A stretch of DNA of 43,979 nucleotides from assembly GCA_018238155.1 (NCBI GenBank), contig JABCTZ010000023.1:1-43979 (forward strand), given 5' to 3'. Below are positions 1,741 through 43,868 of the stretch, piece after piece. Positions within the stretch are counted from its first letter, which is position 1. Each line of letters opens with the position of its first letter. Below the pieces are notes generated by a model. That model searched no databases. It saw only the letters and a list, made by a program, of their open reading frames with translations, and had not been told where the DNA came from. The DNA comes from Candidatus Heimdallarchaeota archaeon. Lineage in GTDB: Archaea > Asgardarchaeota > Heimdallarchaeia > JABLTI01. The translations under genes and the position numbers were made by a program.

Positions 1741-1863
1741 CTTCCCGAAATGGTCTTCTAGCCCTTCAAGAAGAAGCGAGGGCCGTAGATTCTACAAAAT
1801 AATTATCAGTTATTTTTTATTTTCTTTTACTAACCCCTATAACCTCAGGTGAGGCTAGGATTA
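1741..1863 (+). repeat. Interspersed palindromic element, copy R1 (lacks 3' block)
   Basis: CCCGAAATGGTCTTCTAG..CTTCAAGAAGAAGCGAGGG..GTAGATTCTAC..CCCTATAACCTCAGGTGAGGCTAGG; near-identical to 21048-21226. Confidence 0.95.
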
Positions 1864-2099
1864 ATGAAAGCTTAATAATTAGATCTATTTCTAGTAATAA
1901 AAGCCAATTTGAAGAGGTATTCATTCCTTTTCGAATTTTTATTGCTTTTCATTATCAGAAAATTGCTTTTTCCATCTACACGAATCTTTCATGTATTGCC
2001 TTTTATGAAAAACTCACAAACAAAACCTTTAAACCTTCATTTAAGTAAATGAATTAGGATAGAACAATCCGAAAAGGAAAAGATGGAAGTATAAGTACA

Positions 2100-2924
2100 T
2101 TGGGGCGAATAAAATTCATCCGTTATCCTGGTGGAAAACAAAGATTACTAAATCACTTACTACTATATTTACCTACAGCTGTTGAAATTCAAGGTAGATA
2201 TATTGAACCTTTTGTTGGTGGAGGTTCTGTTTTCTTTTCAATCAATCCCAAAAATGCTATATTATCCGACATAAATAAAGAGTTAATCGACTTATTTCGA
2301 GGTATTAGATATGCTCCTAAGAAAATATGGGAATTATACTCTAATTTTCCATCAACAAAAGTAGGATATTATAAGATTCGAGACGATTTCAATTATATTG
2401 ATTTAATTTCAAGAGCAGCTAGAACCTTATTTTTGAATAGAACTTGCTTTAAAGGTATGTGGAGACATAATTCACAAGGTAAATTTAACATTGGATATGG
2501 TGGACAAGATAGACGTTGGGTAATTTGTGAAGAAGATATTAAAGAAGTATCAAATAGACTCAAAGGTGTTAAATTATTATATTCAGATTTTCAAGAAATA
2601 ATTGACAATAGCAAGAAAGGAGATTTCATTTTTCTAGATCCACCATATAAACCAAATGAAATTGAGTGTTTGAATGAACACTATTCCTATGGGTGTTTTA
2701 CTTTTGAAGATCATATCAGGTTATCCATCTCATTGCAAAAAGCTAGTGACAGAGGTGTAAAGTGGGCACTAACAACTTCATCACATCAAAAGATAATAGA
2801 TTTATTTGATTTGAATAATGTTGTTAATTTTCCTGTTGGTACAGGACCCAAACCAGGAATTCTGACAATAAATTCTGGTGAAGTATTAATTCTAAACTAT
2901 AAAGAAAAGGAAATTGAAAACTAA
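2100..2924 (+). CDS. Dam-family (D12 class) N6-adenine DNA methyltransferase
   Basis: YPGGK, YIEPFVGGGSVFF (motif I), SDIN, FLNRTCFKG, FLDPPY (motif IV). Confidence 0.92.
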   Translation: MGRIKFIRYPGGKQRLLNHLLLYLPTAVEIQGRYIEPFVGGGSVFFSINPKNAILSDINKELIDLFRGIRYAPKKIWELYSNFPSTKVGYYKIRDDFNYIDLISRAARTLFLNRTCFKGMWRHNSQGKFNIGYGGQDRRWVICEEDIKEVSNRLKGVKLLYSDFQEIIDNSKKGDFIFLDPPYKPNEIECLNEHYSYGCFTFEDHIRLSISLQKASDRGVKWALTTSSHQKIIDLFDLNNVVNFPVGTGPKPGILTINSGEVLILNYKEKEIEN

Positions 2925-4918
2925 TGAAGAAATTACTCGAAGATACAAAATATCAAGAGCATCAAATTCGACCTTTGATTGATTTTTTAGATCAAGAAAA
3001 GAAATTTGAACAAGCTGAAATTTTTGAACAAATGCGTTTTGCTGGTTATGTACTAGATATTAGTTATGATAAAGTAACTATTATTACATCTGATCCATTC
3101 AAGAAGCTTGTTGGAGGTATACCTAGAAATTCTCTACTAGTTATGATTCCTGATAGTTTTGAAGAAATGCCACCGCATTTTACACTATTAAGGGTACTAG
3201 AAGCTGCTGCAACTCCTCTAAAAAAAGAGGTTCAACAAACATATTTTGAACTGCAGAAAAGCTCAATGCCCGAGTTAGATATTTTTACTCAATCGGAACT
3301 TCAGTGGGGAGCTTTAAAAACCGATGTTATTGGTATGTTTTATCCTCATCCAGATAGATTGAATAAAATTGAATTCTCCGGGGACATAAATAATTTTGTG
3401 AGTGCTCATATGTATAAGGTTTATTCACCAAACAAAGAGTTGCTAAATCTTATTATAAATAGTTCTGTTGAAGAAGAACAATCTTTTCCCCTTGGTAAAC
3501 TAAGGTTTACTGAATGTAGATTGAATCATCAAAGCTGTGAATATTCAGACTTAGATGTTTCTATTTCACCTAGAGATTTTCTAGCAACAAGAACAGCAAT
3601 GTTTGGAAAAACCAGATTAGGAAAAAGTAATATTGTAAAAATTATTGCACAAAGCTTAGTCGAAACAACCAACGAAGAAAGAAATGTTGGACAATTAATA
3701 TTTGATATAAATGGGGAATATGCAAATGATAACCCACAAGATGATAATCTGTCATTGGCAAGTGTTTATGAGCAGAATTGTGTCGTGTATGCATTAACCC
3801 AAAAACCAAATACACCTTCACGATCATTACGGATTAATTTTTATGAATATCCAGAAGTGTCTATGACAATTTTATCAAGATTAATTAAATCCACGCGAGG
3901 TAGTTTATCTAATTATATTGACAATTTTATTAACTGTAATTTACCTTCATTGGAGGATTTATCAGATAATCAATTAGAACATAATATTCGACTAAGATCC
4001 AAAAGAAGGATATTGATGTATTGGGCTTTATTGTATAAAGCAGGTTTTACGGTTGACCAAAATGCTCTGATACAATTGATGCGTGATCATTCCACTGTTA
4101 GGGGTGCCCCATTGGACCCTGGATATAGACGAGAATTGCGAATTGCGATGTATTCTAGCACGCCACCTCAAATTACTAATTTAAATGAATTAGTTACTGA
4201 ATTTGAAACAATATACCAGTTTTTCAGAAACAATAGATCCGCTGAAGAGCTGAGATCTGCAAATGGTAATTTATTAGTTACAAATGATGATGAATCAATA
4301 TTATATATGTTAAATCCACCAACAGGTTCAGGATATAGAATTCTCCCCCCATATCGTGATTATCATGATCAAAATGCTGGAGAATTTATTCAAGAAATAA
4401 TCAATTTACTTGAAGATGGATTAACAGTGATTATTGATTTAGGAAATGCTCCTCCTGAAATAATGAATTTCTACTCAGATCAATTGGCAAGAGCGTTATT
4501 TAACAATCAAGTTAATAAATTCTCTAGAAATGAATTAGGAGATCATTATATACAATTATACTTTGAAGAAGCACACAATCTATTTCCAAATCAAGATGAT
4601 TATAATAAGGATATATACAGAAGATTAGCTAAGGAAGGAGCAAAGTATCATATTGGAATGGTTTACTCAACTCAATCTGTTACAACTATTAATCAAGATT
4701 TATTAGCACAAACTGAAAATTTCTTTGTTGCACACTTGTCTTCAAAAAATGAAGTAAATAGGTTAGCAAATATAAATTCAGCTTTTGATGGGTTGCAAGA
4801 TGATATTTTAAGATCGAAAACAGTTGGCTTCATCAGATTATTAACTAGGTCTCATAGATTCGTAATTCCAGTTCAAGCTAAAAAATTTAGTTTGATTGAG
4901 TCAAATGGTGAGGAATAA
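2924..4918 (+). CDS. herA: HerA/FtsK-family (DUF87) ATPase
   Basis: Walker A FGKTRLGKS, IFDINGEY, Walker B FEEAHN, AKEGAKY, STQ. Translationally coupled to the methylase (TAATG). Confidence 0.9.
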   Translation: MKKLLEDTKYQEHQIRPLIDFLDQEKKFEQAEIFEQMRFAGYVLDISYDKVTIITSDPFKKLVGGIPRNSLLVMIPDSFEEMPPHFTLLRVLEAAATPLKKEVQQTYFELQKSSMPELDIFTQSELQWGALKTDVIGMFYPHPDRLNKIEFSGDINNFVSAHMYKVYSPNKELLNLIINSSVEEEQSFPLGKLRFTECRLNHQSCEYSDLDVSISPRDFLATRTAMFGKTRLGKSNIVKIIAQSLVETTNEERNVGQLIFDINGEYANDNPQDDNLSLASVYEQNCVVYALTQKPNTPSRSLRINFYEYPEVSMTILSRLIKSTRGSLSNYIDNFINCNLPSLEDLSDNQLEHNIRLRSKRRILMYWALLYKAGFTVDQNALIQLMRDHSTVRGAPLDPGYRRELRIAMYSSTPPQITNLNELVTEFETIYQFFRNNRSAEELRSANGNLLVTNDDESILYMLNPPTGSGYRILPPYRDYHDQNAGEFIQEIINLLEDGLTVIIDLGNAPPEIMNFYSDQLARALFNNQVNKFSRNELGDHYIQLYFEEAHNLFPNQDDYNKDIYRRLAKEGAKYHIGMVYSTQSVTTINQDLLAQTENFFVAHLSSKNEVNRLANINSAFDGLQDDILRSKTVGFIRLLTRSHRFVIPVQAKKFSLIESNGEE

Positions 4919-4920
4919 AA

Positions 4921-42569: not shown

Positions 42570-42580
42570 CAATTTCCAAA

Positions 42581-43600
42581 TCACCAATCGAAAATCCTAA
42601 ACAAATTATTGTTACCTTTTTCCAAATTTTCTTTTCTCATCTGAGATAATATTTCTCTGATATAAAGCATCTCTTCAATTGTAAAGGATTTTCCACTTTT
42701 TATTTTTTTAGCCATTTTTCCCCACCTTCTCATAACTTTGAAAAAATCTCTACCGGTAGATTTTCTATAGAAGGTATAATAGAGAATTAGCTTAAGATTT
42801 GAGCTATTCCTATAATTCTCTACTATTTGAAGAGTATCCCAAAGTAGATCCTGAACTGCCGGTATCTCCTGGACAGCTGGTCTATTCAACAAATGACTCA
42901 ATGTTTTATATCCGTTGTATTGTAGAACTATCAACGGGTCAATCTTTCCACTCACGAATTTTTTTTCAAGCCATAGTAGATATTTTTTTGATAAATTTAG
43001 GACTCTTCTCAAATCGTTACCCATGTTGTGTATATATGCTTCGCTTCGTCTAGACTCATGTTCTTTTGGGAAGAAATTAAATGATTCAAAATAAGTTACA
43101 CCAATATTTGCTAGTAGAATGAATGTTTGTAATGGTGTCATCTTCAACGTTCTTTCTATTGTTTGCTTAGATATTTTTTTGATACTTACTTCTTTTGTTT
43201 TCATCGAGTAATTAAATCTTAGGAGAATTGAATCTTTCTCAACTTCGATGTTATAATTCAATATGAATTCATCAAAAATCATTCCATTCCCATTTGAAAC
43301 CTCCATCAAACAAAAAGAGTTGAAATCACTATTGTTTAATTCCTTTTTTTCTTGCCATATTTTATTTTCTTTTAGTGGTTCTTTTCCTTCAAAGTATATG
43401 TGTAGTTCTGATGGTATTATTTTTACATTAGAATTTTCGCTTAATAATAGAAGAGAATTGTAAGCACTGAAAGGATTTAGATAAAAATTCCAGTACGGTT
43501 GATAGCATAACAATTCATCATTTATAATTGTATAAACATATTCAGTACTATCCTCTCTTTCACCAGATATTAGTAATGGAATAAAATGATTAGTTCGCAT
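42581..43600 (-). CDS. Uncharacterised paralogue family member 5
   Basis: FIPLLISG, AYNSLLLL, MTPLQTFILLAN, PLIVLQYNGYKTL, ILYYTFY, MRRWGK. Confidence 0.8.
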   Translation of the reverse strand: MRTNHFIPLLISGEREDSTEYVYTIINDELLCYQPYWNFYLNPFSAYNSLLLLSENSNVKIIPSELHIYFEGKEPLKENKIWQEKKELNNSDFNSFCLMEVSNGNGMIFDEFILNYNIEVEKDSILLRFNYSMKTKEVSIKKISKQTIERTLKMTPLQTFILLANIGVTYFESFNFFPKEHESRRSEAYIHNMGNDLRRVLNLSKKYLLWLEKKFVSGKIDPLIVLQYNGYKTLSHLLNRPAVQEIPAVQDLLWDTLQIVENYRNSSNLKLILYYTFYRKSTGRDFFKVMRRWGKMAKKIKSGKSFTIEEMLYIREILSQMRKENLEKGNNNLFRIFDW

Positions 43601-43686
43601 ATGCTCTCAATCCTACTTCCTTTCAATCTACAAACCTTTTATTCCTCTTCCTTATATTTCCTTTGGGATTTCTTTTCCATCTATGC

Positions 43687-43868
43687 GTGTTCTTCCCGAA
43701 ATGGTCTTCTAGATCTTAAAGAAGAAGCGAGGGCTGTAGAATCTACGTAATTATCAATTATTTTTTTCTCTTTTATTTATCCCTTACAGTCTCAGGTGAG
43801 ACTAGAGTCATTTGATCGAAAAAAGGATCTACTCAATTTATTTGTTTTAAAATTAACTTGAAGAAGTA
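43687..43868 (+). repeat. Palindromic element copy R16 (full length)
   Basis: All blocks present, including a perfect AGTCTCA-gg-TGAGACT stem. Confidence 0.96.

Follow-up and report, generated by a model that had tools for sequence, protein, structure and literature searches.

IMEX elements and dif modules are integrase-less units that stack in tandem and co-oriented at one chromosomal site, using the host's Xer in trans. Islands at tRNA genes are known to grow by accretion with a regenerated gene end and displaced, co-oriented tails (PMC4383910), and the tycheposon islands of Prochlorococcus contain scattered partial tRNAs (bioRxiv 10.1101/2020.12.28.424599). For Asgard archaea, integrons have been reported (Ghaly et al. 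2022, as cited in PMC11529989), and in Ca. Heimdallarchaeum endolithica HeimM2 is a single 8-kb element beside the 16S gene with a homing-endonuclease-like gene (Wu et al. 2022, PMC8813620). In the literature we found no paper describing cassette arrays joined by 23S-rRNA tails, which is what we describe here.

The stretch analysed (the window) is one whole contig of 43,979 nucleotides from a Candidatus Heimdallarchaeota archaeon. A first-pass annotation had proposed about 16 same-strand copies of a repeat, all intergenic, and an nhmmer profile search finds 16, each matching one of the start points noted then, all on the + strand and all (16/16) between main gene calls. The 21-nt core of the repeat taken alone has eight + matches at ≤2 mismatches in the window, against 0.01 expected by chance. 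The length of about 180 bp given earlier holds for 6/16 copies but not for the other ten, which consist of the core part only (6/16) or of the trailer module only (4/16). Defence, toxin-antitoxin and surface genes, the cargo named in that annotation, are likewise the classes found among the window genes. The repeat copies, located by nhmmer, and the cassettes and blocks are as follows:

1721..1936, + strand: repeat copy E1, full, with a short degenerate tail, the core (TTCTAG at 1756; 0 mismatches) and trailer module X (E 2e-48, model 1-208)
1937..14266: the largest block, 12.3 kb and 11 genes with no core inside; by Pfam a Dam-type methylase, a HerA-like ATPase, a weak Piwi-like protein, a Cas4-like nuclease, RmuC, HNH and unknowns
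14267..14377, + strand: repeat copy E2, core part, degenerate (E 4e-14, model 11-144)
14378..17927, + strand: four-gene block, one gene with a weak SMODS-like match
17928..17991, + strand: repeat copy E3, 23S tail and left part of the core only (E 3e-8, model 1-65)
17992..20256, - strand: cassette for an HD-domain protein of 665 aa, from a family with 10 members in arrays
20257..20369, + strand: repeat copy E4, core without tail, then right-flank family R1
20370..21044, + strand: cassette R1...L1, a DUF433/DUF5615 toxin-antitoxin pair
21045..21234, + strand: repeat copy E5, full, the reference copy of the first-pass annotation (E 1e-55)
21235..23584, + strand: cassette for a HEAT-repeat protein of 682 aa
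23585..23772, + strand: repeat copy E6, full, with ~22 nt of clear 23S tail
23773..30676: block with two paralogues of unknown family (-), a 1033-aa TSP3-repeat surface protein (+) and a 133-aa ORF
30677..30776, + strand: repeat copy E7, trailer module X only (model 91-195)
30777..32314: block with a 205-aa ORF and a HEPN/nucleotidyltransferase pair
32315..32521, + strand: repeat copy E8, full (E 1e-51)
33501..33596, + strand: repeat copy E9, 3' part of module X only
33655..34614, - strand: cassette gene of the unknown paralogue family, 319 aa
34689..34797, + strand: repeat copy E10, core part
34804..37278, - strand: cassette gene for a HEAT-repeat protein of 824 aa
37370..37486, + strand: repeat copy E11, degenerate core (E 3e-7; sequence read directly)
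37487..38591: block with an ABC ATPase gene fragment (+) and a DUF5615/DUF433 toxin-antitoxin pair (-)
38592..38684, + strand: repeat copy E12, core part
39199..39259, + strand: repeat copy E13, part of module X
39881..40002, + strand: repeat copy E14, module X only
42107..42237, + strand: repeat copy E15, core, then right-flank family R1
42238..43674: block with a second, truncated DUF433 cassette copy joined to a paralogue gene (-)
43675..43869, + strand: repeat copy E16, full

For many array genes the nearest relatives are bacterial.

The organism has one 23S rRNA gene, and the repeat is a displaced duplicate of the 3' end of this gene. Its ~25-60 nt of gene sequence (in rare cases more) are accompanied by the processing stem's 3' arm, to which a ~130-nt trailer module is often added in this species and one close relative. 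Rfam places the archaeal LSU rRNA 3' end at C35:5360-5952(-) (313.8 bits), the remainder of the gene lies at the end of contig C1, overlapping C35, and a repeat copy at C35:5178-5383 spans from within the 23S gene into its trailer. The element had been taken for a free-standing palindromic site; instead, it is a duplicated 23S tail plus stem arm. The pairing partner of its first ~65 nt is a single-copy stretch in the 5' flank of the 23S gene (C1:133990-134048; cofold -68.9 kcal/mol), and on its own the 190-nt element folds no more stably than shuffled sequences (z +0.46 as DNA, -0.48 as RNA). The array is therefore anchored at the rRNA gene, which brings it nearer to island accretion at tRNA and tmRNA gene ends than to integrons.

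The genomes are all fragmented MAGs (this one, G000, is 90.7% complete with 5.9% contamination). The window forms part of a ~150-kb row of cassettes beginning at the 23S gene; the row is spread over separate contigs, only one of which in G000 (C35) is physically tied to that gene. The clustering and strand bias that the first-pass annotation had wanted checked are both evident by nhmmer: of the 54 copies in the genome, 51 are found on eight small contigs with a combined length of 158.5 kb (3.9% of the genome), on a single strand within each. In two relatives (G005:C98 and G009:C95), co-oriented repeat copies come after the 23S gene on the same contig, so that displaced 3' fragments downstream of a stable-RNA gene, here rRNA and not tRNA, are present in three genomes. 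The median core-to-core spacing is 1.5 kb; most cassettes span 0.7-3 kb and hold one or two genes, some adjacent blocks have no core between them, divergent gene pairs occur within blocks, and 159 array ORFs are co-oriented with the site and 120 opposite (57% co-oriented). A short non-coding repeat with many partial copies might suggest a MITE-like element, its orientation being perhaps a replichore artefact, but neither terminal inverted repeats nor target-site duplications are found at the repeat copies, 94% of copies are confined to the co-oriented clusters just described, and gene order between copies is not the same from species to species. The last two of these features refute the MITE or replichore reading, to which we attach practically no probability, and agree with the original argument against random MITE insertion.

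The arrays extend well beyond this genome. The core has matches in all ten other species of the genus. For eight of these, the contigs examined show co-oriented arrays, as do 66 metagenome contigs: the 9 species counted have 170 core copies on 37 contigs, co-oriented within every stretch, and a further 163 copies lie in the metagenome contigs, on one strand only in 65/66. In G021, from another family, the repeated sequence is that genome's own 23S trailer, which is unrelated; at least nine co-oriented copies are present, ending sharply on the right after a conserved ~23-nt motif. 23S-trailer repeats are absent from G016 and G026, two complete genomes of another genus.

Cassette order, whose comparison between strains had been suggested, was compared between species, and the same units are found again beside different neighbours. 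Cores bound the DUF433/DUF5615 cassette as an exact unit of ~0.8 kb at G000:C28, G000:C33, G005:C80 and G006:C217, and a 92% identical copy, for which only the downstream core was placed, lies in G009:C102; its neighbours differ at each occurrence, in four or five species. The HEPN/NTase pair with its following core (window 31543-32387) is 90.7% identical to G009:C102:1360-2204, and the distance between these two cassettes is 10.3 kb in the window versus 2.5 kb, with other content, in G009. Within the window, the truncated DUF433 cassette of the last block is 96% identical to positions 20417-20700. Among 169 copies, 74 pairs share the left flank only, 140 the right flank only and 5 both.

The position of this switch points to the 21-nt core (TTCTAGNCCTTNAAGAAGAAG), which lies in the outer stem arm. 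Across 317 copies, the excess identity linked to a shared left flank extends to position -1 and that linked to a shared right flank begins at +21, so that one ends and the other begins at the two edges of the core. Between unrelated copies, agreement is ~0.69-0.98 for the greater part of the core, and 0.45-0.53 where it has two degenerate N positions; it is ~0.3-0.7 over the adjoining 20 nt and ~0.3-0.5 in more distant parts of the tail. The core is far better kept than the adjoining tail in spare copies. From these comparative patterns, we consider it probable that the 23S-tail repeats join cassettes that are gained, lost, duplicated and re-ordered by recombination within the core, and we infer that the exchange would be a site-specific or short-homology reaction. 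RadA homologous recombination with gene conversion between the direct repeats could also move, duplicate and homogenise blocks without any dedicated site or enzyme. The similarity between copies (45 to over 100 nt) would suit it, as would their ragged left boundaries and the lack of a recombinase gene in or near the arrays, and archaeal cases of homologous recombination between elements integrated in tandem are documented (PMC8371274). The core variants also appear host-specific (GCGAGGG in G000 and G009; GTGTGNG in G004, G005, G006 and G008; CGGAC|TGCTAG in G006), as do tail variants, across different cassette families, which calls for gene conversion or in-situ evolution and would fit plain homologous recombination too. 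However, the linkage switch is limited to a 21-nt stretch, short for RadA-type exchange, and does not spread across tail and arm; neutral substrates of such recombination need not be better conserved than the adjoining tail, as this stretch is; and the first acquisition of a tail by new genes is left unexplained. We regard this reading as unlikely.

No recombinase of the kinds that the first-pass annotation had suggested looking for at array ends was found on any array contig searched. PF00589, PF00239 and PF01867 have no matches on the array contigs of 11 genus genomes; genes for IntI, tyrosine and serine recombinases, Cas1 and HUH are absent from the array contigs searched, as is any integrase from the distal part of C33, and all recombinase or integrase matches in genus genomes fall on non-array contigs. 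A six-frame search reading through stop codons, which covered the contigs holding the 170 genus copies, found no integrase remnants either. In G000 as a whole there are no serine recombinase or Y1 HUH matches, and 0 matches to IntI (TIGR02249), in keeping with the earlier remark that the window shows neither an integrase nor canonical attC sites; no attC-type hairpin is seen. This lack of any known recombinase points to an enzyme or mechanism yet to be discovered. Neither excised circles nor junction variants at the level of reads were seen, and the gene-capture or shuffling platform of the first-pass annotation, borne out as a co-oriented, clustered array with cassettes exchanged at the element, is a reading of comparative patterns and not an observed reaction. 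The only tyrosine recombinase gene common to most of the genus (~351-360 aa, 6/11 genomes; here G000:C8:49852-50907, PF00589, 94 bits) encodes what we infer to be an Xer-type enzyme, XerA.

This gives the array a candidate enzyme of the kind used by IMEX elements and dif modules, which it also resembles in its integrase-less units stacked co-oriented at one site. Unlike a clear 11-6-11 dif, the core consensus has only weak symmetry (best dyad ACTTCTAGA-CCTTAA-AGAAGAAGT, 9-6-9, 6/9 positions). Like tRNA and tmRNA islands (Islander-type, tycheposon), the array targets the 3' end of a stable-RNA gene, whose end is regenerated, and its displaced tails are co-oriented direct repeats through a variable island with defence and niche genes. 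It differs from them in its target (23S tail plus processing-stem arm), in its dozens of very small cassettes, in that neither an integrase nor a replication module lies within or next to the arrays of the genomes searched, and in a joint that is under constraint in spare copies; unlike tycheposons in particular, its contigs show no replication-type family among the 25 most frequent Pfam families of the 125 recurrent array families. The resemblance raises the alternative that integrase-bearing elements entered serially at the 23S 3' end, each displacing one tail, and that integrases and most element genes were then lost, leaving an immobile fossil. A regenerated gene end followed by co-oriented displaced tails is the layout expected from accretion, and the tails have two preferred left limits, around -35/-40 and -55/-70; against this, even remnants of an integrase are missing from the array contigs searched, autonomous elements would need more room than the cassettes offer, the same small units reappear in several species next to different genes, and within-genome duplicates up to 96% identical indicate recent movement. 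We find this history very unlikely.

With sedentary chromosomal integrons and CALINs, the array shares a long one-directional layout in which co-oriented sites, homogeneous within a host, delimit small exchangeable cassettes that are enriched in toxin-antitoxin and defence genes and duplicated and re-ordered between relatives. This, together with the report of integrons in Asgard archaea, could suggest a true integron, or a CALIN with unusual attC sites; however, there is no IntI, attI or Pc promoter, the site derives from an rRNA trailer at an rRNA-gene anchor and is not a hairpin-forming imperfect palindrome such as a folded attC, and array genes lie on both strands, little more than half co-oriented with the site, with their own promoters. 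The probability is negligible in our view, and for this genome the reading is refuted unless IntI lies within the unassembled ~10%. HeimM2 is similar in being mobile DNA of a Heimdall-group archaeon directly adjoining a single-copy rRNA gene, but for it no repeat array is described (PMC8813620).

The cassette row starts immediately after the 23S gene and has the same direction; its units are self-contained, with accessory genes on both strands under their own promoters. In the proposed recombination, exchange between repeats would fall inside the core, so each cassette would begin with the right half of a joint and end with the left half, the latter preceded by a pseudo 23S tail. An excised cassette would be a circle with one complete joint that could re-enter at any copy, including the native trailer, and an unrecognised recombinase, or else the conserved Xer-like tyrosine recombinase, would act as the catalyst in trans. 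More tentatively, and as a possibility that we would put below even chances, Heimdall-group archaea may possess a distinct gene-capture system anchored in the 23S processing stem and present in at least two families whose trailers are unrelated, in which a recombinase of an unrecognised family or a housekeeping enzyme would use a lineage-specific core of ~21-23 nt to insert, excise and shuffle integrase-less cassettes, as an independent functional analogue of integrons.

The repeat arrays explain breaks in metagenome assemblies, and the core provides a simple probe for such arrays. If the proposed exchange is correct, genes can be captured at the end of an rRNA gene much as they are at integron sites and the ends of tRNA genes, and in this host, a member of the archaeal group closest to eukaryotes, the region would be a main place where genes for defence, toxin-antitoxin and surface functions enter the genome and are shuffled.

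Iterated nhmmer searches of the 4.08-Mb host assembly (genome G000), with a profile made from its own copies, placed 54 copies of the repeat, 16 of them in the window, which makes up the entire contig C28. All 16 lie on the + strand, as do the several overlapping direct-repeat families returned by a repeat search.

Start points of the 16 repeat copies in the window (nhmmer)
1721, + strand
14267, + strand
17928, + strand
20257, + strand
21045, + strand
23585, + strand
30677, + strand
32315, + strand
33501, + strand
34689, + strand
37370, + strand
38592, + strand
39199, + strand
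39881, + strand
42107, + strand
43675, + strand

This is one copy for every start point named in the first-pass annotation, and the main ORFs flank the copies and never contain them, in agreement with the intergenic, co-oriented arrangement described there. The proposed length of about 180 bp applies to 6 of the 16 copies, but six others consist of the 5′ part alone and four of the 3′ part alone. A 21-nt core within the repeat has eight matches with at most 2 mismatches on the + strand of the window, where shuffled sequence would give 0.01; the – strand has one match, with 3 mismatches and within a gene. The palindromic character originally ascribed to the element was not borne out: its single-strand fold is no better than that of shuffled sequence (z-scores of +0.46 as DNA and –0.48 as RNA), which rules out an attC-like or palindromic reading. 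No family was matched in an Rfam scan of the window at gathering scores, and a tRNA search of the window found none.

The repeat is a displaced copy of the tail of the 23S rRNA gene together with the 3′ arm of the archaeal rRNA processing stem. The top-scoring genomic copy, C35:5178-5383(–), starts within the 23S gene and extends into its trailer; C35:5360-5952(–) matches the final ~400 positions of the Rfam archaeal LSU rRNA model (313.8 bits), and the remainder of the genome's only 23S gene forms the end of contig C1, which overlaps C35. Numbering is from the first T of TTCTAG (position 0), which puts the end of the Rfam 23S model at –10. A long interrupted helix joins positions –22 to +40 to the 5′ flank of the 23S gene (C1:133990-134048; cofold –68.9 kcal/mol), and it is these positions that constitute the 3′ arm. 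The 5′ arm is single-copy in G000, implying that the downstream side alone has multiplied; a repeated 5′ arm, with which cassette transcripts could have built processing stems of their own, is thereby ruled out. The first-pass annotation's view of the element as a site of gene shuffling is largely right, but it missed that this site is a 23S rRNA tail plus processing-stem arm.

The left limits of the copies cluster around –35/–40 and –55/–70, and a few copies extend at least 140 nt into the gene. To the right, the native trailer of G000 and its closest relative, G009, continues as an AT-rich segment of ~130 nt (module X), which contains T-runs and a strong small hairpin and terminates in a degenerate second core (AGTTAACTTGAAGAAGTAA), while in other species the trailer diverges directly after the arm. 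Module X accounts for both the full "180-bp" copies and the partial 3′-only copies, and behaves like a tiny non-coding cassette. The 23S genes of the genus themselves carry large insertions, such as one of ~153 nt close to the 3′ end in G000, and range from 3.26 to 4.28 kb in length (loci G000:C35:5360-5952, G005:C98:98488-102769 and G007:C99:38470-42544); these insertions could be expansion segments or introns.

The copies are clustered and strand-biased, the two properties that the first-pass annotation had proposed to test. Eight small low-GC contigs of G000 (C28, C33, C31, C2, C9, C5, C35 and C32), totaling 158.5 kb or 3.9% of the genome, hold 51 of the 54 copies, on one strand only in each contig. 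Core matches were found in all 10 other species genomes of the genus, where the reversed-pattern control gave 0-2 matches per strand. Wherever assembly has kept the 23S gene joined to its flank, a same-strand array lies behind it: the gene of G005:C98 occupies 98488-102769, with copies continuing to 128.8 kb, and G009:C95 is arranged alike. Each stretch is co-oriented among the 170 core copies in the contigs examined from 9 species, the sole two-stranded contig being G005:C98, where two – copies (55173-56170) lie 43 kb upstream of the 23S gene and the main + array behind it. Metagenomes added 163 core copies on 66 contigs, 65 of them single-stranded. The median core-to-core spacing is 1.55 kb (interquartile range 0.9-2.9 kb), the maximum being the 12.5-kb block of the window. 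The – copies of G005, G009:C71:50586-51409(–) and G000:C10:33817-33907(–) are all far from the main array; comparison of these three sites revealed no orthology among them, and several of the outlying copies lack the tail, starting at or just before TTCTAG.

Pfam searches of the blocks between copies agreed with the defense, toxin–antitoxin and surface cargo first described.

Cargo of the window
Dam-type methylase with HerA-like ATPase
Weak Piwi-like protein with Cas4-like nuclease, RmuC and HNH
HD-domain protein
DUF433/DUF5615 pairs, two complete and one truncated
HEPN/nucleotidyltransferase pair
HEAT-repeat proteins, two
TSP3-repeat surface protein
Paralogs of an orphan family, four

At 2100-6228, the HerA-like (DUF87) ATPase comes immediately after a D12-class adenine methylase and precedes a 435-aa unknown protein, in what looks like a methylase-linked defense operon. 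The co-directional genes at 10041-14214 encode a 709-aa protein whose match to the Piwi domain is weak (E 2.4e-4, under the Pfam cut-off), a Cas4-like PD-(D/E)XK nuclease, RmuC and a small HNH_3 protein, and an AHJR-like nuclease gene lies before them; this row may be a prokaryotic Argonaute-type defense module in an Asgard archaeon. The nearest relatives outside the genus of the DUF5615 toxin-like protein (20645-21031) are bacterial (Planctomycetota, Verrucomicrobiota and Chloroflexota, 30-39% identity), which fits cargo of bacterial origin. An ABC-transporter ATPase gene fragment at 37445-37760, running from the Walker B region onward, is 94.6% identical to G005:C75:17179-17494, whereas other cassettes common to G000 and G005 are only ~74% identical; either this piece of the gene is very conserved or it was transferred recently. 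Across the arrays, 125 protein families recur, the frequent ones including LVIVD/TSP3 surface proteins, STAND-TPR NTPases, HEAT and TPR proteins, ABC exporters, methylases, NTase/HEPN pairs, GNATs and the orphan family.

The two flanks of a copy reassort freely, both within and between species. When sequences to the left of the tail (–250 to –60) and to the right of the core (+30 to +230) were compared for 169 copies, 74 pairs shared the left flank only, 140 the right only and 5 both. One example is the DUF433/DUF5615 cassette, which has one right-flank family (R1) at its head and one left-flank family (L1) at its end and recurs as an exact core-to-core unit of ~0.8 kb at four places, with different neighbors at each location.

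Locations of the DUF433/DUF5615 cassette
G000:C28 20257-21070, in the window
G000:C33 2876-3690, on another array contig of the same genome
G005:C80 12435-13223, in a second species
G006:C217 4586-5360, in a third species

A version 92% identical occurs in G009:C102, with a core placed on its downstream side only (4811). There, 2.5 kb separate it from the HEPN/NTase cassette; in the window the distance is 10.3 kb, with HEAT, paralog and TSP3 genes between, and the intervening content in G009 is other. Within the window, 42286-42569 is 96% identical to 20417-20700, the second copy being truncated and fused to another gene. Gene order between copies, examined across species, thus differs, and the stable order that would have refuted the first-pass reading was not seen. 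Contigs C5 and C35 of G000 differ by the presence or absence of a ~650-bp DUF1877 block behind module X; the right junction lacks a core, so this is not a clean empty-site pair. No match to the core pattern was found in the viral_contigs set, and none of the 66 metagenome loci showed a terminal overlap indicating a circle. Only one sequencing run contains the stretch (share 0.07), in the form of relatives' contigs; a few of these, aligned to the window, pass from one repeat copy to another (e.g., 32421 to 39903 and 37782 to 32346), with sides of 26-37 nt that lie within the repeat and so provide no evidence either way on exchange.

The exchange point was mapped by linkage in 317 anchored copies, using only pairs with a non-23S left flank (57 left-only and 134 right-only pairs). 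Excess identity tied to a common left flank spans –40 to –1 and is absent from 0 on, and that tied to a common right flank begins at +21; the interval between these edges, TTCTAGNCCTTNAAGAAGAAG, shows almost no variation. Agreement among unrelated copies is ~0.69-0.98 across most of the core (0.45-0.53 at two degenerate N positions), compared with ~0.3-0.5 in the far tail, ~0.3-0.7 in the adjoining 20 nt and ~0.3 past +27. Such uneven conservation, in spare copies with no rRNA to process, argues that the core itself is maintained, by selection or by repeated exchange. Its consensus contains a weak dyad, ACTTCTAGA-CCTTAA-AGAAGAAGT, with 6 of 9 positions matching, which is compatible with a tyrosine-recombinase-type core site without proving one. 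Exchange would most likely occur within the 21-nt core, via a putative enzyme acting in trans. Plain homologous recombination between the repeats is a live rival, as is the possibility that the array records earlier integrations and is no longer active. Each host tends to have its own core and tail variants (GCGAGGG in G000 and G009; GTGTGNG in G004, G005, G006 and G008; CGGAC|TGCTAG in G006), implying either gene conversion or that the copies have long resided in each lineage.

For the trans-acting enzyme favored here, we found no candidate near the arrays. The lack of an integron integrase noted for the window extends to the whole genome (no TIGR02249 match), and G000 likewise yielded no serine recombinase or Y1 HUH transposase. 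PF00589 has two matches in G000, neither near a copy: a conserved 351-aa ORF on C8 (49852-50907), which we infer to be Xer-like (putative XerA), and a weak one at C19:71085-72659, whose surroundings contain no core-like site. Across 11 genomes of the genus, PF00589, PF00239 and PF01867 had no match on array contigs, and toward its distal end the array on C33 gives way to peptidases, ABC transporters and dehydrogenases, among which no recombinase was found.

The orphan family (270-340 aa; four or five copies in the window, 18 in the surveyed arrays) was considered as a hidden recombinase.

Orphan-family copies in the window
23832-25636
33655-34614
42581-43600
32588-33214 (additional)

It has no Pfam match and occurs patchily across the genus. 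AlphaFold gave a confident model (pLDDT 77, pTM 0.83), with which fold searches of the PDB returned nothing convincing (best Foldseek E 0.07, best VIA-align Z 5.3). Nothing supports a recombinase, and we rejected this candidate.

The gene-shuffling platform proposed in the first-pass annotation largely stands, on the basis of flank reassortment and unstable gene order; for its enzyme, the searches found none. A full-text literature search found no paper on arrays at the end of a 23S rRNA gene. The closest items are a single element, HeimM2, beside the 16S gene in Ca. Heimdallarchaeum (PMC8813620), tycheposons, which build partial-tRNA islands (10.1101/2020.12.28.424599), and tRNA/tmRNA islands (PMC4383910); a review of archaeal integrated elements describes tandem integration and homologous recombination among them and makes no mention of rRNA (PMC8371274). 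Beyond the genus, no trailer repeats were found within 20 kb behind the 23S gene in four genomes from three other genera (G016 and G026, both complete, and G012 and G022). G021, from another Heimdall-group family, has a 23S trailer of its own, unrelated in sequence, and at least nine co-oriented copies of it lie behind the gene (G021:C12:495100-515099), with ragged left limits and a sharp right edge after a conserved motif of ~23 nt ending in GTACGTTCGTTGG; its 525-kb array contig has no PF00589 match. That an array has also formed from an unrelated trailer implies that this layout goes with the 23S trailer itself rather than with one sequence.
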